64,000 nt of DNA from Runella aurantiaca (GCF_003339505.1 NZ_QPIW01000003.1:184471-248470); one strand, 5' to 3'. Numbered from the stretch's first letter, positions 5,639 to 30,209 are shown. Program-made: numbers and translations. The notes: generated by a model from the sequence alone, not told the origin.

Positions 5639-5714
5639 AAGTAATGCAGGGTTAAGAAAACTAAGAAGTTAAATCAAACAAGAGGCCTAAACTGCTCATT
5701 TTAATGGCTTTATA

Positions 5715-8564: not shown

Positions 8565-8580
8565 CTTTTTGGATTCGGAT

Positions 8581-14317: not shown

Positions 14318-14392
14318 GGTGTGTAGAAGTCATGATTTATGTTTTAATTAATAAAAAAACTATATTGGTTACAATACATCAAGGGAAAAAAT

Positions 14393-16282
14393 ATGAGAGC
14401 ATTTACCAAACGGTCGGTAGTACTGTCTATCATTATACTGTTTTCTGTGGTTACTTACGGGCAGTATTTTAGGGTCAGTTATTCCGTTGATAGTCTCAAA
14501 AAAGTATTATTAGCCGTTGAAAGCAAATCCGCGCCCACCCAAAAAAAAGAAATACTTACGCTCAATACCTTAATCGCAACTGCATTCAACAAAGATGCTC
14601 AGTTTGACAGCAGTTTGAGTTTGTTGAGAAAAATTCTCCCTGAATTGCAGGCTCAAAATATGCTTAATGAGATTGCCGAAGCTCATTTCCATATCGGGTG
14701 GGCACTGCAAAAAAGAGAGTTGTACTTTGAGGCCGTTAAATCTTTTGAGGAAGCCATCGTGGCGGCCCAAAAAGCAAAAAACGACAGTTTGCTTGCCATC
14801 AGTCATCACTGGGCAGGGATAAGCTATAGCGACCAAAAAGTCTATCCTAAAAGCCTTTGGCATTATAAAAAAGAGCTTGAAATTTGTAAAAAAGCAAAAC
14901 TTAAATTTCAACATGCCGATTGCCTAAACTCCATTGGACTCCACTATTTTGGGTTTGAAAAAATTGATTCAGCATTTTATTTTTTCGATGTATGTCGCAA
15001 AATTTCCGAGAAGAATCAGTTTGATATACTCCTCCCGATTTCTTACAAAAATGTAGGAAAATGCTACTGGGCGCTTGGCAATGAACAAAAGGGAACGGAC
15101 TTTATTTATCGCTCAATAGAACTTTTTCTGAATCACAAAAACCCTAGAATTCGATATTTGTCTATGTACAGCTACATTGAGCTGGCTCGCTATTATGCCA
15201 ACAAAAAAAACTATAATTTGTCAAACCAAAATGCTTTGAAAGGTTTAAAAATCAACGCATTGGCCAATTTTACCGATTTGCAGCAAGATTTTTCATTCCT
15301 TCTATATAAAAATCACAAAGCCACAAAACAAACTTTAGAAGCCCTGCAATATTTAGAAATATACCAAAAAGCTTCCGAAAAAATCAACCAAAATTATTTG
15401 GCACAACAGCACGCAGCATTGGATGAACGAGTGCAAAATGAGCAACAAAAAAACCAGATATACGTACTCAATCAAGAAAAAATAGCCAAACAACGAGAAA
15501 GAAACTGGTTAATAGGAGGGTTAACTGTTGCAGGAATGTTCCTATTTGTCATTGGCAAACTCTACCAGACAAATAGAAAACAAAAAAAAGTAATCCAAAA
15601 AGCTAATGAACAACTGGAAGAAAAAGTAAAACTGCGCACTGCTGAACTCCAAAGGGCATTAGACGAAATAAAACAAGCCATGCTCAAAGGTCAAAAATTG
15701 GAACGAACCCGCGTAGCTGCCGAGTTGCACGACAACCTAGGAAGTTTGCTTTCGGCCATTAGCATCAGTATGGAAGTGGTCGAAATTGGTGAACTATCTC
15801 TCCACGAGCAGCAAATTTTTGCGGGAATCCAACAACAAATAAATGCGGCTTATCACCATGTACGCCTGCTTGCTCATAATCTTCAGCCTGCTGAGCTGGA
15901 GAGAGAAGGATTAAAAAAGGCCTTGGAAATTTTTGCGGCTAAAATTAACCAAAGCAAATACTTTCACCTGACGCTTGATACCACTGCCCTTGTTCCTCTC
16001 TCTAAAGATTTGGAGTTTACATTGTACTCTATTTGCTTAGAGCTCATCAATAATACCCTTAAACATGCCCAAGCTACCCAAGTACGAATCGCTTTTGATC
16101 AACAAACGGCTCACCGCTGGCAGATGATTGTAGCCGATAATGGCAAAGGTATGATGCCCAACACAAAAGAGGGGTTTGGTATCCAAAACATCAGAAATCG
16201 TCTCGAACAAATAGGAGCAACTCTCCATATAATTCAAGAAAAGGGATTGACCTTTTTGATTGATTTTAAGACGGATGAATAA
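14393..16282 (+). CDS. sensor histidine kinase, TPR-repeat periplasmic/sensor region + HisKA_3 + HATPase_c
   Basis: N-terminal signal/TM, TPR-like repeats, internal TM (WLIGGLTVAGMFLFVIG), coiled coil, H-box 'RVAAELHDNLGSLLSAI', and a C-terminal ATPase (NGKGM...GFGIQNIRNR). Divergent from the NarL-type regulator. Confidence 0.85.
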   Translation: MRAFTKRSVVLSIIILFSVVTYGQYFRVSYSVDSLKKVLLAVESKSAPTQKKEILTLNTLIATAFNKDAQFDSSLSLLRKILPELQAQNMLNEIAEAHFHIGWALQKRELYFEAVKSFEEAIVAAQKAKNDSLLAISHHWAGISYSDQKVYPKSLWHYKKELEICKKAKLKFQHADCLNSIGLHYFGFEKIDSAFYFFDVCRKISEKNQFDILLPISYKNVGKCYWALGNEQKGTDFIYRSIELFLNHKNPRIRYLSMYSYIELARYYANKKNYNLSNQNALKGLKINALANFTDLQQDFSFLLYKNHKATKQTLEALQYLEIYQKASEKINQNYLAQQHAALDERVQNEQQKNQIYVLNQEKIAKQRERNWLIGGLTVAGMFLFVIGKLYQTNRKQKKVIQKANEQLEEKVKLRTAELQRALDEIKQAMLKGQKLERTRVAAELHDNLGSLLSAISISMEVVEIGELSLHEQQIFAGIQQQINAAYHHVRLLAHNLQPAELEREGLKKALEIFAAKINQSKYFHLTLDTTALVPLSKDLEFTLYSICLELINNTLKHAQATQVRIAFDQQTAHRWQMIVADNGKGMMPNTKEGFGIQNIRNRLEQIGATLHIIQEKGLTFLIDFKTDE

Positions 16283-16542: not shown

Positions 16543-16580
16543 AAAAATCCCTGCCATTCGAAGTAGCAGGGATTTTTTAA
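16543..16580. terminator. bidirectional rho-independent terminator (aaaatccctgc / gcagggatttt hairpin flanked by A/T runs)
   Basis: Perfect 11-bp stem, 11-nt loop, T-runs on both strands. Lies between the convergent HK gene (+) and susD-like gene (-). Confidence 0.7.
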
Positions 16581-16598: not shown

Positions 16599-17981
16599 TT
16601 ACCGCGTTTTTACGTATTCATCCCAGTTGATTTCGGCCTGCGGGCGGGCCAATTGCCTGAAAATTGTACCACGGTCAATGGTTACATCTACGTTTGCGGC
16701 ATTGAGGCGATCGTAGCGACGCAAATCTACCCAACGATGTCCCCAAGGCTCGGCCCAAAGCGAATAACGGCGTTGGAACAAGATTTCGTCAATAAGGGCA
16801 TCTTTGGTCGTAGCGCCCGTGTAGTTTCCAATACCCGCAGCAGTACGAATACGGTTAATGGCCGCCACTGCTTCTGTGGTTTTATTGAGCTGGGCGTTGG
16901 CCTCAGCAGCAATCAGCACCAACTCTTCGTTACGGAAAAACTTTACCTCAGAGGTGTTGAGGGCAAAACGGTTGTCTTGGTACAAACCCGCCAGAGGTGT
17001 TCCATCTGATGTAACCGAGACAGGAGCCGTACGTCGGAAAAACTTCGCACGGACGCGTGCATCTCCCGCAATGGTATCACGTAAGACCGATGGGTGCACC
17101 ACCATCATGGTGCTTACATTGGCATTTTTGACAAAAAACAACGGGTTAAACGTATCTGGTGGCGCCCCGAAGGTATGGGCAGGGCCTGCTTCTAAACTAC
17201 CAGTTGCACTATAAAAGGATGCGGTTACTGCATCCAAAGCACCTTGCCAGTCCTGACGATACACGGCCAAGCGCGCCGCAATGGCACGATTCAGTTGACG
17301 CAGTCCAGCAATGGTTCCGAAGCCATTTCCTGTGAAACCAGACGTCAAACGTAGAGGAAAATTCCCTGTGCCAGCACCGCTCAATTCGGTATTGCCTTCG
17401 TCCAAGATGCGTTTGATTTGGGTAAACGACTCTGCAAGCGGCAAGAAAGGCCCTGGATTTTGAACGTCTTTGACATCAATTCGAATCCCATTGTCGTATT
17501 GCCCCATTGCCACAATCAGGTATTGGTACGCCATGAGGGTTTTGGCAAAGCCCGAAACCGCATTTTTCTCTTCGGTCGTAAAAGTATTGGTATTGCTAAC
17601 GGCATCAATCACTGTCTGCGCCTGACGAATGGCAAAGTAAGGTTGCTGATACGTATTCAAATATCCAAACATGTTGGCTGTTGCCTGACGCCCGTTCATG
17701 CCGAGCCAATCAGTTTGCCAACGAGGGTCAGAGGCGTTTAAGTACCACAATTCACGCCCCATTGTTCCGTACAACATTGTCACGGTAAAGAGATAATCAC
17801 GGTGACGCGATTCCAACCCAGTTACCAAGTTTTGCACTTGGGTACGAGACGCGTTTTGACTCACACTTCCCAGCGAAGGGTTGTTGGGGTCGTTGGGAGT
17901 ATCAAGGCTGAAAAAGTTACAAGAACTCATCATCAACAACAGCCCTGCAAAAACCGGAGTATATAAGTGTATTTTTTTCAT
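16599..17981 (-). CDS. susD: SusD/RagB-family nutrient-binding outer-membrane lipoprotein
   Basis: Lipoprotein signal MKKIH...LLMMSSC. Size of 460 aa, position immediately downstream of the TonB-dependent receptor, and SusD-like composition. Confidence 0.85.
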   Translation of the reverse strand: MKKIHLYTPVFAGLLLMMSSCNFFSLDTPNDPNNPSLGSVSQNASRTQVQNLVTGLESRHRDYLFTVTMLYGTMGRELWYLNASDPRWQTDWLGMNGRQATANMFGYLNTYQQPYFAIRQAQTVIDAVSNTNTFTTEEKNAVSGFAKTLMAYQYLIVAMGQYDNGIRIDVKDVQNPGPFLPLAESFTQIKRILDEGNTELSGAGTGNFPLRLTSGFTGNGFGTIAGLRQLNRAIAARLAVYRQDWQGALDAVTASFYSATGSLEAGPAHTFGAPPDTFNPLFFVKNANVSTMMVVHPSVLRDTIAGDARVRAKFFRRTAPVSVTSDGTPLAGLYQDNRFALNTSEVKFFRNEELVLIAAEANAQLNKTTEAVAAINRIRTAAGIGNYTGATTKDALIDEILFQRRYSLWAEPWGHRWVDLRRYDRLNAANVDVTIDRGTIFRQLARPQAEINWDEYVKTR

Positions 17982-17993
17982 GTCCGTAACGCA

Positions 17994-20900
17994 TTAAAAT
18001 TCAACAACTAAATGACCAAAAAAGCGACGCTGTGTAGGATAAGGAGCAATATCTACCCCCGATGCCACGGCTTGCAACCCAAAAGTGGAAGTTTCGGGAT
18101 CGTAGCCACGGTATTTGCTGAACGTCAATGGGTTTTGGCAAGAGAAACCTACGCGCACCCGTGATATTTTATTGTTGGACCATTTATTCAATGAGGTGGT
18201 AGGGACAGTGTAGTACAACGCTGCCTCGCGCAAACGAAGATAGGTGGCATCTTGTACCCAACGGTCGGCGCCGTTGTGAGGAGCTAAGCCCCGCTGACGG
18301 CCGTTAGGCACGCCGTCGCCGTTATCGTCATCGTCCCAGTCAGGAGAGGTTCCGCCGCCATCCCACAAAAACTCGGTTAGGTTGATATTATCCCCTCCTT
18401 TTTTCCAGTGCCAAAGCATGTTGAAATCAAAGTTTTTGAAGAAGTTGATTTCATTGCTCCACGACATCTGAAAATCAGGCTGGTTATCTCCCAAAATGTA
18501 CGCCCCTGTACGCACACCTTCAGCGGCAGGCGTATCATTGGCATCACGCGCTGGGCGTGTACCTACGATGGTCGTTGGCGAAAAGCCCTCTTGGTACAGG
18601 AATGTCCCCAATGTTACCCCAAAAGCCCCTAAGTTGTAGGCAGGGATCCCCAACTTGGTAAGAAGAATGTCGTTTTTCCACCACAACACCCGCGAACTCC
18701 AGCGAAACTTTTCTTTTTGGGCAATGGTTCCTCCCAACGAAAGCTCTACGCCACGGTTTTGGAGTTGGGCTAAGTTAGTAGGAATAGTACTGATACCCAC
18801 CGCAGGAGAAAGTTGCAAATTCTGAATATTACTGCGGGTTTGCTTATCGTAGTAGGTCGCTTCCAGTTGGATTCGGTTGTTGAACAATCCTAAATCTAGC
18901 CCAAACTCCAACTCACCCGCACGCTCAGGCTCAATGGCGGCATTGCCCGCCGCAGTGGTCACCACCGAGCCAAGCAATCCGCCGATATTGGCCGAGTTGA
19001 GCGGCGTAAATGTGGTTCCAAAACCTGGTACTCCAGCGGTTTGTCCATAGGCAACACGCGGCTTGATTTGTGAGAAAACAGAAGACAAGCTCGATGAGCG
19101 AATGAAGTCAAAGTTGGCAATGTTGATGGCCAAAGATGCTTTCGGGAAAGCCCAAAACTTGTCGGCATCGCCAATAAGGGTTGATTTATCCCAACGTACG
19201 CCCGCCGTAGCGATGATTTTATCATCCCAGTTGGCTTCTTGTTGAACAAACGCACCCACGTCGGTAATGGTCTGAAAACGTTGGTCAAAAATCTCTTGTA
19301 CGGTTCCTTGACGCAAGTTGGTTTGACCTCCTGCCAATCCACGCGAGCGGTTGAGCAAGCGGTCTTCGCGGAAGTTAAGCCGCACCGCACCCGCTTGCGA
19401 TGTAAGATTGACTTTCCTAATGTTCCAGTTATAAACCAATGCCGTTTGGAAGTTGGTATTCACGTTTTCGGTTTTTCCCCAAATCACATCGCCTGGGTTT
19501 CCTTGAGCGCGTTGGTATTGCAAATCTTCGGGAAGATAAACAAACGTTGTTCCTTGGGTATAGTCCAATCCTCCTTGTCCTACCAATTTCAGTAGTGATT
19601 TTTCTGACTTGTAAAGATTCGCCGTCAGGTTAAACGACTGAATAAATCGGTTGACATTGGTGTTGTTGATACCACGGTCGGTTACGGCCACGGGATTTTC
19701 GGAGAAGTAAGGGTTGTCGGGGTAGCGACCGCTTTCATCGGGGAAAAGGTTGTAATAATTGGGAACATAAGCGATGTTGTACCCAATACTCGCCCCTGAG
19801 TTATTTTGGTTTCCCGTAAAACCCCGGTCGGAGTTGGTATTGATGTAGTTTGACCCTACGGATAAGGTAATATCGTTGGTCAGTTTATGGTCGATATTGG
19901 CACGTAACGAATAGCGTTTAAAGCCCGTACGTCGAACAATGCCTTTTTCGTCGGTCAAGGCTCCCGAAATGAAAAACTTGGTTTTATCGTTCCCGCCCGA
20001 AATTCCCAAACGAGTGTTGGAAAGTGGTGCCGTGTTTCCGTAAAAATACTTTTCATAATCCCAGGTTTGGCCATTGGCCGCACGGAAGCGGTCTAACTCC
20101 GTCTGCCGACGAGCAGCGGCAAAAAATGTGTTGATTTTAGCTTCCGTCCAGTTGTCTACCCCAAATAGTCGTTGTGGAGTAGCAAATCCGTAGTCTTGGG
20201 CAAACGATACTTTTGTTTTGCCTGCACTACCGCGTTTGGTGGTGATGATGATTACCCCGGCATTGGCCCGGGTACCGTAGATAGCCGCCGCCGATGGGCC
20301 TTTGAGTACTTCTACGTTTTCGATGTCGTTGGGGTTTAAGTCTGAAATCCGGTTAGAGGCATCGTCTTGGGTTTCCGCTCCTGCGCCTGTGACCGAGGCA
20401 CGACCCGAACGATTAACCCCGTTGTTGGCATAAACTCCGTCAATAATGTATAGAGGCTGGGAAGCGCCTACCAGCGATGAAATCCCCCGCAACTGAATCG
20501 AAACCCCGCCTCCTGGTGCGCCACCGTTGGTGTTCATGTTGACCCCCGGCAGTTTTCCGTAAAATGCGTTGTCTACTGTTTGGATTTGGGTCGTTCCCAT
20601 GAGGTCTTTAGCCGAAAGGGTTCCTACCGCGTTGGCCAAGTTGGAACGTTTGATGCTCGACGCCAAACCTGTTACAACGACTTCCTGAAGGTTTGAAACG
20701 TCTTCGATGAGCGTTACATTAATGGTGCTGTTGTTGCCAACAGCCACCTCTTTCGATTGAAAACCAATGGAAGAAAAGACCAACGTCGCGTTGTTTTGAC
20801 GGAGCGTAATGGAGTACGTTCCATCTGCCCCGCTGGTGGTGCCAATTGTGGTGCCTTTCACAACGACATTTGTTCCTGGGATAGGGGAGCCATCGGCGGA

Positions 20901-21008
20901 TTTGACCGTCCCACTGACTTGGTTTTGGGCAAAGGCAATTGCGGTTAGTAACCACATCCCCGTCGCAAAGACTAGTCTTGCCATCGAAAAATAGGTAAAT
21001 TTTAACAT
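17994..21008 (-). CDS. susC: SusC/RagA-family TonB-dependent receptor
   Basis: Signal peptide, carboxypeptidase-regulatory-like N-domain (VSGTVKSADGSPIPGTNVVVKGTTIGTTSGADGTYSI), TonB-box region and plug. About 1000 aa, with a C-terminal aromatic residue (…VVEF). Confidence 0.9.
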   Translation of the reverse strand: MLKFTYFSMARLVFATGMWLLTAIAFAQNQVSGTVKSADGSPIPGTNVVVKGTTIGTTSGADGTYSITLRQNNATLVFSSIGFQSKEVAVGNNSTINVTLIEDVSNLQEVVVTGLASSIKRSNLANAVGTLSAKDLMGTTQIQTVDNAFYGKLPGVNMNTNGGAPGGGVSIQLRGISSLVGASQPLYIIDGVYANNGVNRSGRASVTGAGAETQDDASNRISDLNPNDIENVEVLKGPSAAAIYGTRANAGVIIITTKRGSAGKTKVSFAQDYGFATPQRLFGVDNWTEAKINTFFAAARRQTELDRFRAANGQTWDYEKYFYGNTAPLSNTRLGISGGNDKTKFFISGALTDEKGIVRRTGFKRYSLRANIDHKLTNDITLSVGSNYINTNSDRGFTGNQNNSGASIGYNIAYVPNYYNLFPDESGRYPDNPYFSENPVAVTDRGINNTNVNRFIQSFNLTANLYKSEKSLLKLVGQGGLDYTQGTTFVYLPEDLQYQRAQGNPGDVIWGKTENVNTNFQTALVYNWNIRKVNLTSQAGAVRLNFREDRLLNRSRGLAGGQTNLRQGTVQEIFDQRFQTITDVGAFVQQEANWDDKIIATAGVRWDKSTLIGDADKFWAFPKASLAINIANFDFIRSSSLSSVFSQIKPRVAYGQTAGVPGFGTTFTPLNSANIGGLLGSVVTTAAGNAAIEPERAGELEFGLDLGLFNNRIQLEATYYDKQTRSNIQNLQLSPAVGISTIPTNLAQLQNRGVELSLGGTIAQKEKFRWSSRVLWWKNDILLTKLGIPAYNLGAFGVTLGTFLYQEGFSPTTIVGTRPARDANDTPAAEGVRTGAYILGDNQPDFQMSWSNEINFFKNFDFNMLWHWKKGGDNINLTEFLWDGGGTSPDWDDDDNGDGVPNGRQRGLAPHNGADRWVQDATYLRLREAALYYTVPTTSLNKWSNNKISRVRVGFSCQNPLTFSKYRGYDPETSTFGLQAVASGVDIAPYPTQRRFFGHLVVEF

Positions 21009-21207
21009 GAATTTGGTGATTTAGTTTATATTGAAATGGTTTATTCAACTCAAAAACAAAAGCGAATGCTTCAATGTTTTGAAACCAAGTTGGCTATAAG
21101 CCACAGAAGATTTTTACGCTGTTGCTAGAGAGTTGTTGAGAGCAATAATATTGAAATAATTCTAATCTTAAAAAGAATATAACTAAAAATATTGCTACTT
21201 AGGGGCA

Positions 21208-21260
21208 CAATAAAAACAAAAAAGTAGAGCACCCTATCAATGGATATAGGGTGCTCTACT
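21208..21260 (-). terminator. rho-independent terminator after the TIM-barrel gene (15-bp perfect stem agtagagcaccctat / atagggtgctctact + T-run on minus strand)
   Basis: Perfect inverted repeat 21223-21237 / 21246-21260, followed on the minus strand by TTTTTTGTTTTT. Confidence 0.75.
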
Positions 21261-21277
21261 TAAAATCAATTTAGAAA

Positions 21278-22144
21278 TTACAAACTCTTCAAATAAGCAA
21301 TGCTTTTTGGCACTTGCTGATACCAAGTGGGGCTTTCGTCTTCGATGAAATAATGCTTAATACCGATTTTCTTGGCTTCCTTAATTACACCCGCCACGTC
21401 GACCTGTCCTGTGCCCAACACTACGTCGTTTATTAAGGGTGTACCGCCGGTCAAATCGCCTTTTACGCCATTTCTGAGGTCTTTGAGGTGAATGAGTTTG
21501 AAGCGATTGCCGTATTTTTTCAACAAACTAACGGGTTCAGCTCCTCCGTGAAATGCCCATAGGATGTCTAATTCAAAGGATACATATTCGGGGTTGGTGT
21601 TTTTGACAATGTAGTCAAACAAGGTTCCGTCTTCGTAAGGCTGGAATTCGTAGCCGTGGTTATGGTAGCAAAACGTGATGCCGTTTTCTTTCAACACTTT
21701 GCCAATCATATTAAAATCATCCACGGCTTTTTTGGCTTCCTCAAACGTAAAACCACCTTTGACTTTGTGCGGAATCCATGCGCACATCAGGTAGCTAGAG
21801 CCTAGCAATTTGGCCGTTTTGGCCGCCGCTGCGGGGTCTTTTACCAATTGTTCGTAGCCTCCGCCCGTTCCGGGGATTTTGATGCCACGCTCTTCGCACA
21901 TTTTTCTGAATTCTTCGGGCGTGGTGCCTTTGGCGGCTCCGCCTTCCAATTCGGTGACTCCCAACATTTTGAGGGTGTCGAGCGTGGCGGCTACGTCTTT
22001 AGGAAAACTGGCGCGGTAGGTGTACGCCTGCATTCCGATGGGGAACGTGTATAATTTGCCTTTTTGGGCAAAAACTTCGCCAACGGCACTGATAAACAAA
22101 AGGGAGAGGCTTAATAAAATGGTTGCTTTTTTCATTGTATTCAT
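21278..22144 (-). CDS. secreted sugar phosphate isomerase/epimerase (xylose-isomerase-like TIM barrel)
   Basis: Signal peptide, then TIM-barrel composition (HNHGYEF, ELDILWAFHGG). Genomic context with a GMC oxidoreductase. Confidence 0.7.
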   Translation of the reverse strand: MNTMKKATILLSLSLLFISAVGEVFAQKGKLYTFPIGMQAYTYRASFPKDVAATLDTLKMLGVTELEGGAAKGTTPEEFRKMCEERGIKIPGTGGGYEQLVKDPAAAAKTAKLLGSSYLMCAWIPHKVKGGFTFEEAKKAVDDFNMIGKVLKENGITFCYHNHGYEFQPYEDGTLFDYIVKNTNPEYVSFELDILWAFHGGAEPVSLLKKYGNRFKLIHLKDLRNGVKGDLTGGTPLINDVVLGTGQVDVAGVIKEAKKIGIKHYFIEDESPTWYQQVPKSIAYLKSL

Positions 22145-22209
22145 TTTGAGTTAGTTACTGTTTTTTAACCGCAGAGAAACAGAGTTACACAGAGGAAGGA
22201 GGATTTAGA

Positions 22210-23919
22210 TTATAACTTTCGTTTTTTCAGTTGCTTCACAGCATAATCGGCCGCGCGGGCGGTGATGGCCATGTAGGTCAGAGACGGATTTTGGGTACCA
22301 GTGGAAGTCATACAGGCACCGTCGGTCACGAACACGTTTTTGCAACTGTGTACTTGATTCCATTCGTTCAACATCGACGTTTTGGGGTCTTTGCCCATGC
22401 GAATGCCGCCCATCTCATGAATATCTGAACCCGGATTTGCGTGCGTATCCACACCACGAATGTTCTTAAAGCCTGCCAACGTAAACATTTCGGTGAGTTG
22501 TTCGAGGTAGTCTTTCACCATTTTATCGTCATTTTCCGTCCACTTCACCGACGTCACCAACTGAGGAATTCCGTAAGGGTCTTTTAAGTTCGGGTCCAAA
22601 CGCACATGGTTGCTTTCGATGGGCACGGTTTCGCCCATCATCCACGCGCTGAGGTTCCAGTTGCCCAATTGCGGATGCAGGAGCGCGTCTTTGAGTTCTT
22701 CGCCGATTTCGGCCTGTCGCGTGAGGCGTCCCCGGCCGCCACCGATGCCCGTGGCGTAGCCGCGCAGAAAATCACTTTCCTGTTTGTGGAGATTCCTAAA
22801 ACGCGGAATATAGGCGTTGCTCGGGTTTTTCCCGTCGGTCATTTTATCGTAGTAGCCTTCATATTCGGCGTTTATGCGGCCGCGATAATTATGCCACGCA
22901 ATGTATTTCCCTAAGGTACCGCTGTCGTTGCCTAGGCCGTTGGGGAAACGACTTGAAATGGAATTCAACAAAATCAGGTTGCTGTTGAGTGCCGAGCCGT
23001 TGACAAAAATGATTTTAGCGTAAAATTCTATCACTTCCTTTGTAGTGGCATCTACGACGCGTACACCCGAAGCCTTTCTTTTCTTCTCATCAAAAATAAT
23101 GGAATGCACCACTGAATGCGGGCGCAGAGTCATGTTGCCCGTTTTGGCCGCCCACGGTAAAGTGGAGGCATTGCTACTGAAATAACCGCCAAACGGACAG
23201 CCACGGTTGCAGAGCGACCGGTGCTGACATTTGGCGCGGCCTTGGTCGTAGTGGATTTGCTGCGGGTCGGTAATGTGGGCACAACGCCCCTGAATCACGT
23301 GGCGGTCTTTGTAATTTTTGGTGATGGCCTCCTGAAAATGTTTTTCGATGCAGCTCAATTCAATCGGCGGCAAAAACTCACCATCGGGCAATTCTGGCAA
23401 GCCGTCTTTATTGCCCGAAATCCCCGCAAATTTTTCGACGTGGCTGTACCAAGGCGCAATATCGGCGTAGCGGATGGGCCAATCGGTCGCAAACCCATCG
23501 CGGGCGGGGCCTTCAAAATCAAAGTCCGACCAACGCTGCGTTTGGCGCGCCCACAACAGCGATTTGCCGCCCACATGGTAGCCGCGCGTCCACTGAAACG
23601 GCTGTTCTTCCACAAACGGCTGTTCTCCTGGCTTTAAAGCCCAGTGCATGGTTTCTTCGCGCATGAAACTCGCTCGACCGTTGGGGTATTGATTGCGAAT
23701 TTCCAACGGTACCTGACCGCGATGCTCAAATTCCCACGGATGTTTATTGGCGGTTGGATAGTCGGTTACGTGTTGTACATCACGGCCACGCTCCAAAACA
23801 AGGGTTTTGAGCCCTTTTTCGCACAGCTCCTTCGCGGCCCAACCGCCGCTGATTCCTGAACCAATCACGATGGCGTCGTAGGTACGGTCTTTGATGGAAT
23901 CTATATTAAGGTATGACAT
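22210..23919 (-). CDS. GMC-family FAD-dependent oxidoreductase (no signal peptide)
   Basis: N-terminal Rossmann DAIVIGSGISGGWAAKEL. Size of 569 aa and GMC C-terminal region. Adjacent to the small TAT-signal subunit. Confidence 0.85.
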   Translation of the reverse strand: MSYLNIDSIKDRTYDAIVIGSGISGGWAAKELCEKGLKTLVLERGRDVQHVTDYPTANKHPWEFEHRGQVPLEIRNQYPNGRASFMREETMHWALKPGEQPFVEEQPFQWTRGYHVGGKSLLWARQTQRWSDFDFEGPARDGFATDWPIRYADIAPWYSHVEKFAGISGNKDGLPELPDGEFLPPIELSCIEKHFQEAITKNYKDRHVIQGRCAHITDPQQIHYDQGRAKCQHRSLCNRGCPFGGYFSSNASTLPWAAKTGNMTLRPHSVVHSIIFDEKKRKASGVRVVDATTKEVIEFYAKIIFVNGSALNSNLILLNSISSRFPNGLGNDSGTLGKYIAWHNYRGRINAEYEGYYDKMTDGKNPSNAYIPRFRNLHKQESDFLRGYATGIGGGRGRLTRQAEIGEELKDALLHPQLGNWNLSAWMMGETVPIESNHVRLDPNLKDPYGIPQLVTSVKWTENDDKMVKDYLEQLTEMFTLAGFKNIRGVDTHANPGSDIHEMGGIRMGKDPKTSMLNEWNQVHSCKNVFVTDGACMTSTGTQNPSLTYMAITARAADYAVKQLKKRKL

Positions 23920-24012
23920 TTGAGTATTGAGTAAAGAACATGGGGTATAAAGTATTAGGTATTGAGTACGAACATTGGTGTTTCCGTCTCAGTACTCAAT
24001 ACAAACTACTGG

Positions 24013-24534
24013 CTACGTTTTTACGGGCACACACCCGTAATAATGTCCTGGCGCTTGATTATATTTCAGGTGTTTGGTCTGGACGTATTCGGAGGTGGTA
24101 AACCCGAGAATTGTCAGTGATTTTACAAGTGCTAAATAGTCTTTTTGTGTCTGGTCGGCCGACATTGCTACCTTCCCCAAAACGTCTTTACGTTGGAGGG
24201 AATTGCAGTCAACGAAAGCCCGGAGATAGCGGTCTTTGGCAATGGCATCGGTTTTTTCAAGGCCTTTTTTGACATTTTCCTGCACGTCTTTTTCGTAACA
24301 ATCCAACAGCATTTTTTGGATAAAATCAGGTACGCCCAAGTCTTTGGCTCCGGGCGTATCGGTCGTTGGAATAATTGTATCCACCACCGAAACTAGCAAC
24401 GCTTCTTGTTTAGGCGAAAGATTTAACGCCCACCTTTGGATAGTGCTCGGGCTCCACGCTTCTGCCCAAGTGGGTAAAACGACCAATCCGCCTGCTGCTA
24501 AGGTGACATTTTTAAGAACTTCCCGTCGGTTCAT
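24013..24534 (-). CDS. gluconate 2-dehydrogenase subunit-3-family small subunit with twin-arginine signal
   Basis: MNRREVLKNVTLAAGGLVVLPTWAEA is a TAT signal (RR-x-x-L-K). 173 aa. Paired with the GMC oxidoreductase. Confidence 0.75.
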   Translation of the reverse strand: MNRREVLKNVTLAAGGLVVLPTWAEAWSPSTIQRWALNLSPKQEALLVSVVDTIIPTTDTPGAKDLGVPDFIQKMLLDCYEKDVQENVKKGLEKTDAIAKDRYLRAFVDCNSLQRKDVLGKVAMSADQTQKDYLALVKSLTILGFTTSEYVQTKHLKYNQAPGHYYGCVPVKT

Positions 24535-24631
24535 GTCATGAAAATCGTTTAGATAAAGTTGGGACAGTGCTATTGGAAGAAGAAATCATCTTTTTTATTA
24601 AAGTCCAGAGTACTATTTATTTACTGAATGG

Positions 24632-25777
24632 CTATTTTCTGTCCATTAACTGCCATGCTTGGTCAATTCCATCATAAATAAACATGAGACCTGTCATGCC
24701 TCTGTATTGTTGAACGGTATCAATGATAAAACCGCCCCCTATATCGAAATGAAGTTTATTGGCGGAATTAGTTGAGCTAGAAGCTAAATAGATTTTTAAT
24801 TCGGCTCCTCTCCCTACCATGATATAAACAACCCGACCATCTACGCCCCCGGCAATGCCTTTGAGATGTACTGTTCCTGGGCCATCAAATCGAATGACGG
24901 ATTTTCCATTTCGGTCTAAGTTGTCGAATGTAATATCGTTTGTGTTAAAACTTTTGGTTTCAATAGCCAACTCAAGGGCGCCATTTAGGGTAAGTGTAGA
25001 AGAGGGAGTGTCATCGCCGATTCCTACATTACCATTGCCCTGAATAGTCATTTTATTGGTGGTGTTGATGGAGTTATTTTCGGTCGTATAAAAATTTATT
25101 TTTGCTCCATTGTTGACATCGGTCCAGTTTTGGTTAGCTACCATCTCAATCCGAGCTCTGGAAGAAGTATAGCCAGTGCCGTTATACCCTTTGGCTCCGA
25201 AGCGTGCCAGGATATCGTCTTGGAGGGTGGGGGTGGGAGTGATAGTACTGCCTCGGGCTCCAATCCCGAAAATGGCCGGGGCATCACCACCATAGCGATA
25301 AATAGCAATTCCTCGATCTGAATCGTTTGGTTGTTGTACTTCTAATTGATGATCGGGAACCGTAGTTAGATAATTGCCAATTCCTACTTTCCCGTCATGG
25401 TTTACAAATAGCCGACTCAAGGCCAGAGTTGTATTGTTTTGAGTCGTAAAAATCTCAGCTTGCGTTCCCCTGTTATTGTCGTTCCAGTTTTGGGTAGCTT
25501 TAAATCGTATTGCTCCCTGAATACCCGTAAATGACCCGCCTGCGTACCCGCGTCCTTCAACGCTGAGCAACAAATTACCCGATTCGGTGGCGGACGGGTT
25601 GGCATGACTTCCATTGATTTTCACTCCGATGAGATTGGGAATGGCCGTACTTCGAAGAAATACATTCTCATATTGGGTATAATCCGTCTCGATTCGGTTG
25701 GGTCGAATCAGAATACTTTGGCAAAAAGAAGCGATGTTGGCACACACGATGGCGAGGGTAAGGATAGGCTTTTTCAT
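24632..25777 (-). CDS. hypothetical secreted protein with internal 'NWxDxNNG..I.F.TT.NN' repeats
   Basis: Signal peptide MKKPILTLAIVCANIASFCQS. Two similar segments. No recognisable catalytic motif. Confidence 0.5.
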   Translation of the reverse strand: MKKPILTLAIVCANIASFCQSILIRPNRIETDYTQYENVFLRSTAIPNLIGVKINGSHANPSATESGNLLLSVEGRGYAGGSFTGIQGAIRFKATQNWNDNNRGTQAEIFTTQNNTTLALSRLFVNHDGKVGIGNYLTTVPDHQLEVQQPNDSDRGIAIYRYGGDAPAIFGIGARGSTITPTPTLQDDILARFGAKGYNGTGYTSSRARIEMVANQNWTDVNNGAKINFYTTENNSINTTNKMTIQGNGNVGIGDDTPSSTLTLNGALELAIETKSFNTNDITFDNLDRNGKSVIRFDGPGTVHLKGIAGGVDGRVVYIMVGRGAELKIYLASSSTNSANKLHFDIGGGFIIDTVQQYRGMTGLMFIYDGIDQAWQLMDRK

Positions 25778-25858
25778 AGTCTGATTAAGTAATTGAGTAA
25801 AATACTATTGCAGCAGAAATGACAATTCTAAGTTACTCAAATCTCAAACGGGAAAGCA

Positions 25859-26668
25859 TTAGTATCCCAACTTTCTCATCGCTTCCGCGTAGCGGCGGCC
25901 TAGCTCGCGGGCGGCAGGTGCGTCAAAATGCGTTTTATCGCCTTTCTCCGCCAACCCTGCGGCTTCAACGCAAGCCGTGTGTTTAACTTTTTTGGGTAAT
26001 TGGCGAAGTTGCTCATTGATGTCTTTTGCTTCGGGAATACGATTCACGAAGAAATCGCCCAACGTACCGACCACAAACGGCACCTTACGGGCCGATAATT
26101 CTTTACGAAAACGCTTGATGAGCGCCTCTAATTTTTGGGTATAACTTCCTACCAATGCGGGTTTGCTGTCGCTTTCGCCCTGGTGCCACAAAATTCCTTT
26201 CAATTTCCCCGCGGGCAGCGCTGCTTTCGCCCGACGAAGGGCATCGTCGTAGGGATAGCTTTTGGTTTGGTCGTGGTAGCCACCCGGTTGCCACGAGTCA
26301 ATGGCCGACCCACCCACGGCCGCGGGTATAAGACCTATGATGACAGATGTATCAACCTCGGCCATTACGCGGGCAAATTCCAGCCCAGGCCCAACGCCCG
26401 CTTCGGGTTTGTCGAAGTGCATGGGTGCAACGGCAGGGACCCACTGATTGTCTTTGTTAAGCATCCAAATACGCGGATGTGGCGTGCGGTCAGACTCTTC
26501 CACCTTGCCGCGCCCCGCCATGTTTGATTGACCAACGAGCAGATATAAATGCAGTTTTTTACCCTTAAAATTAGGGTTTTGGGCCACTGCTTCCAAAGAA
26601 AAGAGGGCGAAAACATAGAAGAATAAGTATTTCATAAGGGATTGAATGGTTTTTCGCAAAGGGCGCAA
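25859..26668 (-). CDS. SGNH/DUF303-type carbohydrate esterase (sialate O-acetylesterase-like)
   Basis: Motifs LLVGQSNMAGRG and GILWHQGESD. Signal peptide present (start may be the internal MKYLFFYVF). Confidence 0.75.
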   Translation of the reverse strand: MRPLRKTIQSLMKYLFFYVFALFSLEAVAQNPNFKGKKLHLYLLVGQSNMAGRGKVEESDRTPHPRIWMLNKDNQWVPAVAPMHFDKPEAGVGPGLEFARVMAEVDTSVIIGLIPAAVGGSAIDSWQPGGYHDQTKSYPYDDALRRAKAALPAGKLKGILWHQGESDSKPALVGSYTQKLEALIKRFRKELSARKVPFVVGTLGDFFVNRIPEAKDINEQLRQLPKKVKHTACVEAAGLAEKGDKTHFDAPAARELGRRYAEAMRKLGY

Positions 26669-26674
26669 GGGGGA

Positions 26675-28114
26675 TTAGTCTTTAAAATATTTTTCCAAGA
26701 CCTCTTTCGGTTGCCATTGGTCGGGTTTGCGTACAACGTTTTTATAATCAAATACTTGTGATGAAATCTCAGCTGCAGTCAGCGGGAAGGTATCACCGTA
26801 TAATTGCTGATGTTTTCTTAGATCTTCCATCATTGTTTTTACCTTGGCGGTGTATTCGGGTTTTTGAGCCAAGTTGTTAAGTTCGTGCGGGTCAGTTTGT
26901 AAATCAAATAGTTGGACAAAATCGACTTTTGGATAACGAATCAACTTCCAACGTCGATCACGAATAGCGCGCTGCGAGAACGTATAGGCCGTAAAGACTT
27001 GCTCACGCACCGATTGGGTTTTGTTCTGAATAATTCCCGACAAATCTTTCCCTTCCAAATCTTTGGGAGCGGCTACGTTGAGCATTTTACAGATTGTCGG
27101 AAACAGGTCGAACAGATACACAAAAGCGTCACTTTTTTGGTTTTTAGGAATGCCCTTTCCGCTCATAATCAGCGGCACCCTCATGCTGTGTTCGTAAAGG
27201 TTTTGTTTGCCCAACAGGCCATGACTTCCCATTGCTAGGCCGTTGTCAGCGGCAAAAACGATGATGGTATTTTTGTCTAATCCTTTCTCTTTCAGCTTCG
27301 CCAGAATCTTCCCAATGGCTTCGTCTAAGTGCGTAATCATGGCGTAATACTCCGTAAGTTGTGATTTGATAACCTCGGTGGTTCGCGGATAAGCGGCCAG
27401 CATCTCGTCGCGCACGGTCATATCGCTGCCAAAATTGAAGGGATGCGCGGGCATAAAGTTTGGCGGAAGTGGCACGGTACCGTAGCGTTTGAGATAATCG
27501 GGCAAAGGCGAGCGCGGGTCGTGCGGGGCCGTAAACGCTACATAAGTGGCAAAAGGCTTGTTGGCCGATTGTTTGTCTAAAAACTGAATGGCCGTTTCGG
27601 CAAAATGATCGGTAGAGAATCCTTTTTTGATGGGGGTCGTAAAGGTTCCGTCGGGTTTCAAATCACACATCGGAGTTTGATAATGGTCGGCCATTCCGCC
27701 GAGCATCACGTTTTTGGCTTCCATAAAACTCGCTCCCACGGCCGCGGGTTCGTTGTGCCATTTGCCCGTCATAAAAGTAGCGTAGCCATTTTGGCGCAGT
27801 AGCATCGGCCACGTAGTGACGCCATTTAGTTTGTCAGTTACTCTAAAAAAGCCTTTTCCGCTCATCAACATGGCGCGGCTCGGCGCACAAACGGCCCCGT
27901 GATTGCCCCCCAAAATATGCGCTTCGCTGAACAACATACCATTACGCGCCAATTGGTCGAGATTGGGCGTTTGGACGTAAGGATTGCCGTAACAACCCAA
28001 AGCATCGGCGCGGAGGTCGTCGGCAAAAAGAAAGAGAATATTGGGTTTGGGAGATTGGGCGTAAACTGACTGATAAAGCAGAAAACAGAGCAATAAAGAT
28101 ACGTTCCGAATCAT
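26675..28114 (-). CDS. sulfatase (formylglycine-dependent arylsulfatase family)
   Basis: Signal peptide. LFLFADDLRADALGCYGN and CAPSRAMLMSGK give the C-x-P-x-R sulfatase signature. Confidence 0.9.
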   Translation of the reverse strand: MIRNVSLLLCFLLYQSVYAQSPKPNILFLFADDLRADALGCYGNPYVQTPNLDQLARNGMLFSEAHILGGNHGAVCAPSRAMLMSGKGFFRVTDKLNGVTTWPMLLRQNGYATFMTGKWHNEPAAVGASFMEAKNVMLGGMADHYQTPMCDLKPDGTFTTPIKKGFSTDHFAETAIQFLDKQSANKPFATYVAFTAPHDPRSPLPDYLKRYGTVPLPPNFMPAHPFNFGSDMTVRDEMLAAYPRTTEVIKSQLTEYYAMITHLDEAIGKILAKLKEKGLDKNTIIVFAADNGLAMGSHGLLGKQNLYEHSMRVPLIMSGKGIPKNQKSDAFVYLFDLFPTICKMLNVAAPKDLEGKDLSGIIQNKTQSVREQVFTAYTFSQRAIRDRRWKLIRYPKVDFVQLFDLQTDPHELNNLAQKPEYTAKVKTMMEDLRKHQQLYGDTFPLTAAEISSQVFDYKNVVRKPDQWQPKEVLEKYFKD

Positions 28115-28169: not shown

Positions 28170-28213
28170 CTAAATAAAAGAACCGTATAAGGCCATAAAA
28201 AACTTATACGGTT
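28170..28213 (-). terminator. rho-independent terminator downstream of the Pnkp gene (11-bp stem aaccgtataag / cttatacggtt)
   Basis: Perfect inverted repeat 28181-28191 / 28203-28213, with a T-rich run on the minus strand. Confidence 0.65.
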
Positions 28214-28221
28214 CAACGCTT

Positions 28222-29103
28222 TTAAAAATCCCCGTAATTCACCTGCAAACACGGCAAACCCAGCTCCAAGCGCCACAAATCCACGACTTGGTTGCGGTCG
28301 TCGAGCACAAATTGCACGAAATATTGCCCTTTTACGTGCGCTTCGTAAAGCTCTTTTTTGACAACAGCATCTTTGCGCATATCTCCCGTCGTACGCATAT
28401 AGAGCGCGTGATAAGGGATATTGTTGTATTTCAGCCAATTGAGCGTCGGCGTCCGCGCTTTCTCTTCTCGACCCGACATCAAAATAATTTTGACACCCAA
28501 AGTGTAATAATTTTTGATGATTTCGGCAATGGGTTGGTTGAGATCATCCAATTCGCACGACATGGTATCGTAAGGGCTTCGGTTTCTCAAAATAGCCAAC
28601 GTGCCGTCCAAATCACACAGGATAGCAGGCGGCAAAGTTGGGTCTTGGGGCTGATAATGCGGCCCGCGCTCATCGCCCAACACGTGGGTTTTGTACATAC
28701 GTAAAATCACGTCGCGGCCTACTTTTTTCTCCCGTACTTCATCCCGTGCTAAGCTTTCTTCCAATGAAGTGTTCATTTCCCGAACCTCTATCTGCACCTG
28801 TTCTCCCGTTTCTTTGCAGTATTTCTGCACCACCTGACGAATGCGCTCCACTGGGCGGTCTGATAAATTTGTATCATCAATGATGACGTGTTTTCCATCG
28901 CGCAGAGCTTCCACTAACATCAAATCACGGACTCGCTCTACAAACTTTTCGTTGTGTTTTGAATGTTCGCTGTTGTCGAGCATGGCGCGGAGTTCGTCTT
29001 TGTTCAGCCGTTTGTACATGCCCTTGTTCTCGTCCAACAGTTGTCGGGCGAGAGTCGATTTTCCGCTGGCGGGCAGTCCCCGCAGTAAGATTACTTTTTT
29101 CAT
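28222..29103 (-). CDS. polynucleotide 5'-kinase/3'-phosphatase, T4 Pnkp-like (N-terminal P-loop kinase + C-terminal HAD/DxDGT phosphatase)
   Basis: Walker A 'LLRGLPASGKSTLA' at the N-terminus. C-terminal 'ILCDLDGTLA ... LMSGR ... RKD ... LDDRNQVV' gives HAD motifs I-IV. Domain order matches phage T4 polynucleotide kinase. Confidence 0.8.
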   Translation of the reverse strand: MKKVILLRGLPASGKSTLARQLLDENKGMYKRLNKDELRAMLDNSEHSKHNEKFVERVRDLMLVEALRDGKHVIIDDTNLSDRPVERIRQVVQKYCKETGEQVQIEVREMNTSLEESLARDEVREKKVGRDVILRMYKTHVLGDERGPHYQPQDPTLPPAILCDLDGTLAILRNRSPYDTMSCELDDLNQPIAEIIKNYYTLGVKIILMSGREEKARTPTLNWLKYNNIPYHALYMRTTGDMRKDAVVKKELYEAHVKGQYFVQFVLDDRNQVVDLWRLELGLPCLQVNYGDF

Positions 29104-29106
29104 TTT

Positions 29107-30177
29107 TTATACATCATAATTGGCAAACGGCTTCTGAAATACGGGGCGCAGTTGCTTCCAAATCACGTCGTCATAGGGCTTTTGGTCAAACATTTTGAAC
29201 AAAACCGCTGGGTAACGACAGGTTTGAAAATACAGCGCAGTGTCTTTACGCGTTTCTAAAATTTTGAAATCAGCCTTACAGATCGCTTCAATTTCCGCAA
29301 ATTGCGCCAAAAGTTGCGCGTGGGTTTCCTTGACCCACTCATAAAATTCATCGGGTACTTTTTCCAGAATCGGCGTTAAATCCTGTCCTGCTTTCAAATA
29401 CTCCCAAATGCTGACGGTTGAAACGCCCGTCACAATTCGGTGGACGCGCTGGTATTCTTCAAACTTCACTTTCAAACGATATCCACTTTGAAAACGCACC
29501 ACAAATCCTTCTTTGTTTTCTTCCTCCAGCGTTTTCAGCAACTGTAAATCGTTCAGGCCGTCGTAGCGTTTGACGATTTCAAAACCGCCTTCTTTTAGAA
29601 ATGCATGATGTTGCGTTTCTAAAACATCAATTCCCGTTTGGTTATCAATGACCGCCAAAAGAACCAATTTGCGTTCGGCTCCGTAATCCACCACAATGCG
29701 GTTTTCGGGATAAATGATTTCGAATAAATACGTCTTGGTCGGGTCTAAATTCGGAATAACGGGGGCGTATTGGGTATGCAACATGTCCGTAGCCATCAGC
29801 GCCTGCTCGCTCGAAAACGACCCGCGCGAAGCGATAAACGGCTTATTATCATACCAATACAAAATCCCTAATGAACCGTCAAGTTTCTCAAACACTTCAA
29901 AAGGCTCGTTGGGAATGACTTGGTTTTCCATTTCGCCCAAATTGAAAAACTTCCCAAAAGGGCGTGCCACGATGTTATATTCCTCATCTAAAATCAAGCC
30001 TCTGCACGCCAGCGTCAATTCATTCCAAACGCGGTCGTATTGGGTTTTGGGGGTATAGTTGTAGATGTACAACGGTGCCGTGGGGTGCTTTTGCACCTTG
30101 ATGTAATCATCGGCAATGAGTTGTTGTAAGGCTGCGATATTCATCGTTTTAGGTAGACTTGCCAAGTTTTTCAGCAT
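29107..30177 (-). CDS. ATP-dependent RNA ligase, T4 Rnl1 family
   Basis: Nucleotidyltransferase motif I 'KLDGSLG', motif IV 'EGFVVRF' and motif V 'YRLKVK'. Rnl1-like segments 'CRGLIL', 'RPFGKFFNL' and 'SRGSFSSEQALMA' (compare T4 Rnl1 'CRGIMF', 'RPMEKFFNL', 'SKGSIKSEQALMA'). Its stop lies 3 nt before the Pnkp start. Confidence 0.8.
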   Translation of the reverse strand: MLKNLASLPKTMNIAALQQLIADDYIKVQKHPTAPLYIYNYTPKTQYDRVWNELTLACRGLILDEEYNIVARPFGKFFNLGEMENQVIPNEPFEVFEKLDGSLGILYWYDNKPFIASRGSFSSEQALMATDMLHTQYAPVIPNLDPTKTYLFEIIYPENRIVVDYGAERKLVLLAVIDNQTGIDVLETQHHAFLKEGGFEIVKRYDGLNDLQLLKTLEEENKEGFVVRFQSGYRLKVKFEEYQRVHRIVTGVSTVSIWEYLKAGQDLTPILEKVPDEFYEWVKETHAQLLAQFAEIEAICKADFKILETRKDTALYFQTCRYPAVLFKMFDQKPYDDVIWKQLRPVFQKPFANYDV

Positions 30178-30201
30178 ACCTGAGGTAAACTTGGCAAGTC
30201 T
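30155..30201 (-). promoter_or_regulatory. 14-bp perfect inverted repeat (agacttgccaagtt ... aacttggcaagtct) enclosing the annotated Rnl start codon
   Basis: Arms at 30155-30168 and 30188-30201. The ATG at 30175-30177 sits in the 19-nt loop. No T-run follows, so it is not a terminator. Confidence 0.5.
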
Positions 30202-30209
30202 TGTTGATT

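Follow-up and report, generated by a model that had tools for sequence, protein, structure and literature searches.

A predicted oxidative deglycosylation module beside an orphan SusC/SusD pair in Runella aurantiaca

Genes and terminators of the locus

The DNA analysed here, referred to below as the window, is a 64-kb stretch from Runella aurantiaca. Between positions 28114 and 16599 it carries eight open reading frames (ORFs) head to tail, all on the minus strand (Table 1), which encode in turn a sulfatase, an esterase, a repeat protein, the small subunit and the GMC flavoprotein of a predicted dehydrogenase, a TIM-barrel protein, and a SusC/SusD pair. An earlier note on this DNA, made from the sequence alone, interpreted the region as a polysaccharide utilization locus (PUL) built around oxidative cleavage of glycosides. 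We identified genes by Pfam, NCBIfam and PDB sequence searches on the ORFs of the window, and tested the 45 ORFs of at least 150 amino acids against Pfam. The gene list and shared orientation given in the note hold for all eight ORFs, and the Pfam and PDB results agree. The note had also remarked on the absence of glycoside hydrolase (GH) and polysaccharide lyase (PL) genes, and we likewise detected no GH or PL domain in the 45 ORFs across the window. Three large neighbouring ORFs at 2747-9897 on the minus strand (963, 994 and 438 amino acids) have no significant match to a Pfam family, and their GH/PL status is not covered by that negative.

Table 1. Genes and terminator-like sites of the locus, in the direction of transcription
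Feature	Coordinates	Strand	Basis or remark
Terminator-like hairpin and U-run	28172..28214	-	3' of upstream PNKP gene, at the likely 5' limit of the sulfatase-to-TIM unit; 12-bp stem, -16 kcal/mol, z -3.55, then UUUUAUUU
Secreted S1 formylglycine sulfatase, carbohydrate-sulfatase type	26675..28114	-	Pfam Sulfatase and SGSH_C
Secreted SASA/DUF303 (CE6-like) O-acetylesterase	25859..26668	-	Pfam SASA/DUF303
Secreted fibre-repeat protein, 381 amino acids	24632..25777	-	PDB matches; no Pfam family
Hitch-hiker small subunit with twin-arginine (Tat) signal	24013..24534	-	Gluconate_2-dh3, PF13618
Signal-less GMC flavoprotein dehydrogenase, 569 amino acids	22210..23919	-	GMC_oxred_N and GMC_oxred_C
Sec-exported xylose-isomerase-like TIM barrel, 288 amino acids	21278..22144	-	PF01261; last gene of the sulfatase-to-TIM unit
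Predicted intrinsic terminator between TIM-barrel gene and susC	21211..21261	-	16-bp perfect stem, 8-nt loop, then UUUUUUGUUUUU
SusC-like TonB-dependent transporter	17994..21008	-	TIGR04056; first gene of two-gene unit
SusD-like lipoprotein	16599..17981	-	Pfam SusD_RagB, PF07980; lipoprotein signal ...LMMSSC
Terminator-like hairpin and U-run, 3' of susD	16543..16577	-	-22.8 kcal/mol, z -4.73

Separation of the SusC/SusD pair from the upstream genes

Terminator-like sites were sought from 13.5 to 29.5 kb, with z-scores for folding obtained from shuffles. By far the highest-ranking site in this interval is the hairpin directly 3' of the TIM-barrel stop codon, whose folding energy of -26.9 kcal/mol (z -6.98) is equalled by none of 200 shuffled sequences. 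Other terminator-like sites occur at the rate expected by chance (23 found, 22.4 expected). The hairpin is unique within the window, and the possibility that it is a dispersed repeat was rejected because only this single copy is present. R. salmonicolor retains it, with a compensatory change from an A-U to a C-G pair, and R. zeae carries a different terminator hairpin at the equivalent place after the TIM-barrel gene. Folding revealed no terminator in four gaps inside the block that extends from the sulfatase gene to the TIM-barrel gene.

No riboswitch or other known RNA was found in the 270-bp gap between the TIM-barrel gene and susC, where the sub-threshold matches are the hairpin itself, and the only match above threshold in a known-RNA search of the whole window is one tRNA. 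Promoters of Bacteroidota differ from the sigma-70 consensus, and a scan for sigma-70 promoters was uninformative (28 found, 22 expected).

The susC and susD genes are 12 bp apart, and the SusC protein matches TIGR04056 (E 5e-167) and has no STN domain. Orthologues of SusD that are 55-94% identical occur across Cytophagales, Saprospiraceae and Chitinophagaceae (loci L081, L083, L084 and L085), and orthologues of SusC (57-86% identity) are always paired with a SusD orthologue. Conservation of this SusD orthologue group is unusually high for a SusD. In R. zeae, Rudanella, Haliscomenobacter hydrossis and Algoriphagus the pair, with a SusC of ~1000 and a SusD of ~459 amino acids, stands alone among unrelated genes. 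Judged from these comparisons, SusC and SusD are a conserved orphan two-gene unit that is unrelated to the genes upstream.

In a single GH-free PUL, a glycoside or oligosaccharide with sulfate or acetyl groups would enter through SusC/SusD, and the upstream enzymes would desulfate, deacetylate and cleave it oxidatively. The arrangement fits this explanation, in that the eight genes adjoin one another in a single orientation and their products are predicted to be exported, the sulfatase-to-TIM unit has no importer of its own, the window has no GH or PL gene, and the order is kept in R. salmonicolor (L001). Classical sulfatase PULs, such as those for mucin, glycosaminoglycans and carrageenan, likewise place SusC/SusD close to genes for an S1 sulfatase and for a carbohydrate esterase, with all products exported. 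Unlike those systems, however, the locus is without GH or PL genes and without a regulator of the hybrid two-component (HTCS), SusR or extracytoplasmic function (ECF) sigma type, its linkage is not conserved, and a terminator parts the transporter from the enzymes.

Comparison with other genomes also argues against a single PUL. Orthologous SusC/SusD pairs at 55-86% identity are stand-alone and have unrelated neighbours. The sulfatase-to-TIM block is present in R. slithyformis and three Runella-clade assemblies with no SusC/SusD downstream. In R. zeae the SusC/SusD pair (85-86% identical) and the sulfatase-esterase-TIM locus are on different contigs. Among loci that encode orthologues of the GMC flavoprotein, this SusC/SusD pair is shared only by L001, from the same species, and is found at none of 79 others. 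The strongest regional terminator lies between the two sets of genes and is preserved by compensatory change, the intervening gap holds no known RNA, SusC is without an STN domain, and Pfam searches of the window detected no PUL-type regulator (HTCS, SusR, or ECF/anti-sigma). Given all of this, we consider a single PUL quite improbable.

Directly downstream of susD, at 13676-16282, are genes for a TPR/HisKA_3 histidine kinase, on the plus strand and convergent with susD, and for a NarL/GerE-type response regulator. These were rejected as regulators of the locus, because relatives show no orthologous linkage and the response regulator of Rhabdobacter is just 31% identical.

The terminator between the TIM-barrel gene and susC, the stand-alone occurrence of SusC/SusD elsewhere, and the GMC loci that lack the pair together suggest two separate units. 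We therefore hold, with moderate confidence, that the 11.5-kb region consists of two independent units side by side, namely an operon for oxidative deglycosylation in the periplasm (unit 1, at 28114-21278 between terminators) and an orphan SusC/SusD that occurs as a bare pair throughout the phylum (unit 2, 21008-16599), and is not one PUL. The earlier note had named separate transcription of the oxidoreductases among the findings that would speak against its reading, and in silico the position of the terminator points to exactly that; its proposal of a PUL built around the oxidative module does not survive. As a warning for automated PUL calling, the presence of a co-directional SusC/SusD beside sulfatases and esterases can be accidental.

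The dehydrogenase, the TIM-barrel protein and their conservation

The GMC flavoprotein aligns over its full length (residues 13-566) with the fructose dehydrogenase (FDH) of Gluconobacter in a PDB sequence search (7w2j, E 4e-27). A further full-length match is the glucose dehydrogenase of Burkholderia cepacia that uses flavin adenine dinucleotide (FAD) (BcGDH, 6a2u, E 3e-22). Choline oxidases match just the first ~50 residues, corresponding to the FAD N-terminus, with E above 1e-4. Identity as a choline or alcohol oxidase, which the earlier note had raised as an alternative, was rejected on this basis; the full-length relatives are the sugar dehydrogenases FDH and BcGDH.

A signal peptide is absent, and the FAD fold begins directly with the motif GSGISGG from residue 20. 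H501 and N544 align with the catalytic His/Asn pair of FDH. C231, C237 and C241 (C-x5-C-x3-C) align on the Cys cluster of FDH, and their spacing is that of the 3Fe-4S ligands Cys212, Cys218 and Cys222 of BcGDH; a 3Fe-4S cluster is therefore predicted. In BcGDH, the surface 3Fe-4S cluster with these ligands hands electrons from FAD to an external acceptor, and the small subunit is a Tat hitch-hiker (PMC6719666). The small subunit of the window matches PF13618 (E 4e-32), has a twin-arginine motif in its N-terminus MNRREVLK, and found no usable matches in the PDB.

FDH and BcGDH, the best full-length structural relatives of the flavoprotein, thus have in common with the window enzyme the 3Fe-4S Cys spacing, the catalytic His/Asn pair and the Tat hitch-hiker small subunit. 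However, they oxidize free monosaccharides and have a three-haem cytochrome c subunit, whereas the window has no cytochrome c gene. The Cys that forms the inter-subunit disulfide is replaced by Q232. The position of the His in the WHW motif of FDH is occupied by Leu; this His is putatively the covalent FAD attachment site (His105 in BcGDH).

On these sequence features, the flavoprotein and its small subunit belong to the class of FAD-dependent dehydrogenase complexes, of the sugar-dehydrogenase kind with a 3Fe-4S cluster. Such complexes include enzymes for fructose, glucose, sorbitol, gluconate and the C3 position of glycosides. The hitch-hiker arrangement was put forward earlier as a mark of glycoside 3-dehydrogenases, but it is typical of the whole class; because the class spans several substrates, the arrangement alone is not diagnostic.

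The 93-bp spacer between the small-subunit and GMC genes contains a hairpin at 23960-24002 (minus strand; -18.7 kcal/mol, z -2.6) that is not followed by a U-run, and this spacer contains three copies of the decamer TACTCAATAC, counting its complement. These could be a processing or regulatory element.

Scanning one genome per species, we found 137 relatives of the GMC flavoprotein and studied the best 80, comparing their neighbourhoods by tblastn with all window proteins and by de novo clustering of ORFs. The 80 are 68-99% identical to the window protein, with 68-80% identity across orders, and come from Cytophagales, Saprospiraceae, Chitinophagaceae, Sphingobacteriales and Flavobacteriaceae. 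The closest (99%) is that of R. salmonicolor strain S5 (L001). The small subunit is encoded directly upstream of the flavoprotein in 66 of the 68 loci with enough sequence for it to be counted, and a TIM-barrel orthologue, counted at an identity of at least 50%, is encoded directly downstream in 50 of 74. Only these three genes travel together, as any other gene family occurs in at most 8 of the 80 loci.

Some of the less frequent neighbours are related to glycosides. DUF1080 genes (PF06439, the 3-keto-disaccharide hydrolase family) occur within 10 kb in five loci, and in L020 and L042 they adjoin the small-subunit gene. Five loci of Saprospiraceae encode a TIM barrel with GH43 fused to its C-terminus (for example, L013:12136-13959, Pfam E 5e-28), Gfo/Idh/MocA genes are near the GMC gene in five loci, and GH9 and GH32 genes are near the module in Emticicia. 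Neither DUF1080 nor Gfo/Idh/MocA genes are present in the window, where the GMC complex stands as the partner of the TIM barrel. In five Cyclobacteriaceae loci (L057, L060, L066, L068 and L071), a small subunit-GMC pair without the TIM-barrel gene is divergent beside an nrfH/nrfA-like cluster for multi-haem cytochromes that also includes cytochrome c biogenesis genes. This proximity could hint at the electron acceptor, or could be a coincidence.

The best PDB matches of the TIM-barrel protein are 8tct (E 1e-27), 8tcs and 8tcd/8tcr (E 7e-27), after which come two proteins from structural genomics (E 1e-18 and 3e-17), and then 8bvk (E 7e-10). The last is AtOGE, a Mn-dependent O-glycoside beta-eliminase of Agrobacterium tumefaciens (PMC10628242). 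Published work on the lyases AL1 and BT1 assigns the metal ligands to His178/182, Asp211/214 and His237/240, substrate contacts to His180/184, Trp214/217 and His103/107, and catalysis to Glu272/275 on the last strand (bioRxiv 10.1101/2024.03.25.586180). In HMMER alignments, the corresponding His, His, Asp, Trp, His and His residues of 8tct are at 161, 163, 193, 196, 219 and 86, all offset by 21 from BT1 numbering, and the equivalents in 8tcd are at 155, 157, 188, 191 and 214, all offset by 23 from AL1 numbering (the match of His107 was checked in BT1 only). Given these constant offsets (21 at six residues and 23 at five), we take 8tct to be BT1 and 8tcd to be AL1.

Residues H161, H163, D193, W196 and H219 of the window protein align with H182, H184, D214, W217 and H240 of BT1. 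All of the metal ligands are therefore kept (H161, D193 and H219), as are the substrate residues H163 and W196. E268, within the sequence YFIEDES, is likely the equivalent of the catalytic Glu, and lies 49 residues after H219, compared with 35 in AL1/BT1. We predict that the protein is a Sec-exported, metal-dependent 3-keto-glycoside 1,2-lyase. The likeness to 3-keto-glycoside lyases that the earlier note pointed out is borne out by the match to BT1-like 8tct and by conservation of the metal ligands and of the H-x-H and D-x-x-W patterns.

A different explanation is that the small subunit and flavoprotein act as a dehydrogenase in the periplasm on a free monosaccharide, polyol or sugar acid, and that the TIM barrel is a keto-sugar isomerase, epimerase or dehydratase, with no glycosidic cleavage. 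FDH and the FAD-dependent glucose dehydrogenase are indeed the nearest solved relatives of the flavoprotein, the Pfam name of the small subunit derives from gluconate 2-dehydrogenase, and identities of 68-80% across orders are as expected for a common, simple substrate. The best NCBIfam match of the TIM barrel is myo-inosose-2 dehydratase, though at 56 bits it is far under the cut-off of 290 bits, and the position of one substrate residue of AL1/BT1, His103/107, falls in an alignment gap. However, the TIM barrel is far closer to AL1/BT1 than to any solved isomerase or dehydratase and keeps their metal ligands and both sequence patterns, DUF1080 genes and GH43 fusions are found near orthologues, and genetic data show that LacA-type enzymes of Bacteroidota serve the use of glycosides (PMC9007349). 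We regard a dehydrogenase for free sugars as unlikely, and a periplasmic 3-keto-glycoside module consisting of small subunit, flavoprotein and TIM barrel as plausible.

This core would combine a LacAC-type dehydrogenase with a BT2156-type lyase, and so be of an already known kind. LacABC-type GMC dehydrogenases carry out periplasmic C3 oxidation of glycosides, and growth of Pedobacter on lactose and salicin depends on a homologue (PMC9007349, PMC8121099). As in the window, LacABC of Caulobacter crescentus and the putative LacA-type enzyme of Pedobacter sp. GW460-11-11-14-LB5 consist of a periplasmic GMC flavoprotein with a small subunit; they are encoded near homologues of the 3-keto-glycoside enzymes BT2156-2159, and are genetically required for lactose, salicin and other glycosides. 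In contrast to LacABC, the window lacks a LacB-type cytochrome c and DUF1080, and has a sulfatase and an esterase upstream.

The BT2156-BT2160 genes of Bacteroides thetaiotaomicron and AL1-AL5 of Alistipes encode a pathway of oxidation, elimination and hydration that includes the lyases BT1 (BT2156) and AL1, to which the TIM barrel is homologous. The window protein has a signal peptide and the conserved residues given above, and the gut systems use periplasmic oxidation followed by 1,2-elimination (bioRxiv 10.1101/2024.03.25.586180; PMC8121099), which is the order of events predicted for the window. They differ from the window in the oxidant, which is a Tat-exported Gfo/Idh/MocA enzyme with bound nicotinamide adenine dinucleotide (NAD) in the gut systems, and in the window would be an FAD and 3Fe-4S GMC complex linked to respiration. 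The window also has no DUF1080 lyase/hydratase and no SusR-like regulator, and the position of His103/107 falls in a gap of its TIM barrel. The glucoside 3-dehydrogenase of A. tumefaciens, as described in PMC9915066 (citing Miyazaki 2018), is an FAD enzyme with a hitch-hiker subunit, as in the window, and donates electrons to a separately encoded mono-haem cytochrome c. AtOGE of the same species is an eliminase with a TIM barrel that depends on Mn and has H-x-H, Asp, His and Glu as metal and catalytic residues (PMC10628242); it is more distant from the window protein than AL1/BT1 are. The A. tumefaciens dehydrogenase and AtOGE genes do not form one module.

Sulfatase, esterase and proposed function

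The sulfatase matches PF00884 (E 8e-52) and SGSH_C, carries the formylglycine motif C76-A-P-S-R and a signal peptide (MIRNVSLLLCFLLYQSVYAQ), and has the N-acetylglucosamine-6-sulfatase 5g2v (E 4e-53) as its nearest solved structure. On this evidence it is a carbohydrate sulfatase. The esterase matches SASA/DUF303 (E 2e-67) with a GQSN motif at residue 46, and among solved structures it is nearest to the CE6 esterases 1zmb and 2apj. Its start codon is 6 bp past the sulfatase stop codon, or 39 bp if an internal ATG is the true start. Because the two genes are immediately upstream with no intervening terminator, we placed them in unit 1.

In R. salmonicolor, R. slithyformis and four assemblies of the Runella clade, the module is preceded by the sulfatase and esterase genes. 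These two might nevertheless be unrelated passengers, that is, a pair in its own right for some sulfated or acetylated glycan that is upstream of the module by chance in Runella. Homologues of the sulfatase elsewhere (53-61% identity) sit in classical GH-rich clusters, among GH97, GH2, GH29, apiosidase-like and other sulfatase genes, and the small-subunit gene is the first gene of the module in most genomes, so a promoter of its own is expected. Also, GMC loci outside the Runella clade (~70) lack the two genes. On the other hand, no terminator separates the pair from the module, and Runella species retain the linkage even where sulfatase identity falls to 86%. Sulfatase and TIM barrel remain linked in R. 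zeae even without the GMC gene, and in Rhabdobacter roseus a sulfatase orthologue (62%) adjoins a TIM-barrel orthologue (58%) within a cluster that also encodes SusD, FAD oxidoreductases and GH97. The pairing in these two genomes argues against a mere inherited neighbourhood. We think that the passenger explanation is somewhat doubtful; it is possible, from the linkage, that the sulfatase and esterase act on a substrate shared with the GMC module.

Two further observations concern these relatives. At L087:10001-13254 in R. zeae, the esterase and TIM-barrel genes are separated by a 175-bp gap, and a cluster encoding an ECF sigma factor, FecR, SusC, SusD and an FAD protein follows. A protein of 422 amino acids with a twin-arginine signal adjoins the sulfatase in Runella (L003:5541-6809, L004, L005 and L087:8518-9786), is encoded two genes downstream of the sulfatase-TIM pair in Rhabdobacter (L089:11506-12768, 61% identity), and adjoins the small subunit-GMC pair in Negadavirga (L054:7866-9122, 56% identity). 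It has no Pfam or PDB match, and is absent from the window.

The repeat protein between the esterase and the core belongs to no Pfam family. Its PDB matches are fibre and surface-anchor proteins of Bdellovibrio, namely 8oml (E 1e-11), 8on4 (E 3e-10) and 8ond, with a weak match to the L-shaped tail fibre of phage T5. The superfamily comprises 5241 representative clusters, and its unit of ~100 amino acids occurs as many as 16 times per protein, with protein lengths that reach 3293 amino acids. Among GMC loci, the gene is at this site only in the window and in L001, from R. salmonicolor, which we count as the same species. These matches and this distribution identify it as an inserted, species-specific surface-fibre gene. 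The suggestion that it is a binding or accessory component of the system is not supported, given that it is species-restricted, belongs to a fibre-repeat superfamily and is no conserved accessory.

In the mechanism that we propose for unit 1, a Tat-exported heterodimer of small subunit and flavoprotein, with FAD and a 3Fe-4S cluster, would act ahead of the Sec-exported, metal-dependent TIM-barrel lyase. The dehydrogenase would oxidize a ring hydroxyl of a glycoside, most likely the C3-OH, and pass electrons via the 3Fe-4S cluster to a respiratory acceptor encoded elsewhere. The TIM barrel would then act on the 3-keto-glycoside, releasing the aglycone or the following sugar by beta-elimination and leaving a 2-hydroxy-3-keto-glycal. 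In the Runella clade, the sulfatase and CE6-like esterase would probably desulfate and deacetylate the same small substrate first. The sequence itself shows the gene identities, the motifs, the terminator and the patterns of synteny; we infer that oxidation is at C3, that the TIM barrel acts as a lyase, that the sulfatase and esterase share a substrate with the module, and that the genes of unit 1 are co-transcribed. The DUF1080, GH43 and Gfo/Idh/MocA neighbours of related loci and the genetics of LacABC (PMC9007349, PMC8121099) favour C3 oxidation followed by 1,2-elimination, which appears to be the best-supported function of the module.

Several observations weigh against parts of this proposal. 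The terminators are predictions, and transcription could read through into susC. The nearest solved relatives of the flavoprotein oxidize fructose (at C5) and glucose (at C1), such that association with the TIM barrel and DUF1080 alone points to C3. Adjacent TIM-barrel genes are missing from 24 of 74 GMC loci. The position of His103/107 falls in a four-residue gap of the window protein (IPGT....GGG, compared with LSSHCTRG), so its sugar pocket appears not to be identical to that of AL1/BT1, and the catalytic Glu is outside the HMMER alignment, which ends at residue 233-235. No cytochrome c gene (a CxxCH ORF of at least 80 amino acids) exists anywhere in the window, unlike lacABC, nor is one conserved near the orthologues, as a CxxCH ORF is within 5 kb in just 11 of 77 orthologous GMC loci, five of them nrfAH-like. 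The sulfatase and esterase are beside the GMC module in none of ~70 loci from other genera, and their linkage in Runella could reflect an inherited neighbourhood and not a shared function. In R. zeae the sulfatase, esterase and TIM barrel (84% identity) are kept, and the small subunit and flavoprotein are missing at that site.

The window also has genes outside these units. A variable island at 28222-34186, between a DHDPS gene and the sulfatase gene, encodes a PNKP kinase/phosphatase, a T4-Rnl1-like RNA ligase, a DUF4143 ATPase, an SPFH protein and a WYL/WCX regulator, and looks like an RNA-repair or defence-type insertion; R. slithyformis (L086) has PNKP alone at this place. An inorganic carbon transporter pair of the DabA/DabB type is encoded at 37197-41569 on the minus strand, in which DabA matches at E 3e-223 and the other subunit is Proton_antipo_M. 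At 10577-13381 and 3-2687 on the same strand are genes for two large beta-propeller paralogues of the DUF5122 type that are 43% identical.

The route to glycosidic bond cleavage by oxidation and elimination has been worked out only recently, in gut Bacteroides, Alistipes, Agrobacterium and degraders of C-glycosides. The GMC module is widespread and highly conserved in environmental Bacteroidota, and its predicted oxidant is a respiration-linked GMC iron-sulfur flavoprotein instead of an NAD-bound Gfo/Idh/MocA enzyme. It is a good candidate for biochemical characterization, and its possible connection with desulfation in Runella would repay one experiment. More speculatively, an operon of Runella-clade Spirosomataceae might combine desulfation and deacetylation with C3 oxidation linked to respiration and with beta-elimination, without GH enzymes or a dedicated cytochrome c, and we put this forward as an outside chance. 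If it is true, glycosides decorated with sulfate or acetyl would be broken down in the periplasm by an undescribed GH-free route, and the pairing of sulfatase and TIM barrel without a GMC gene, together with the travelling 422-amino-acid Tat protein, would imply a lyase branch devoted to sulfated or formerly sulfated sugars.

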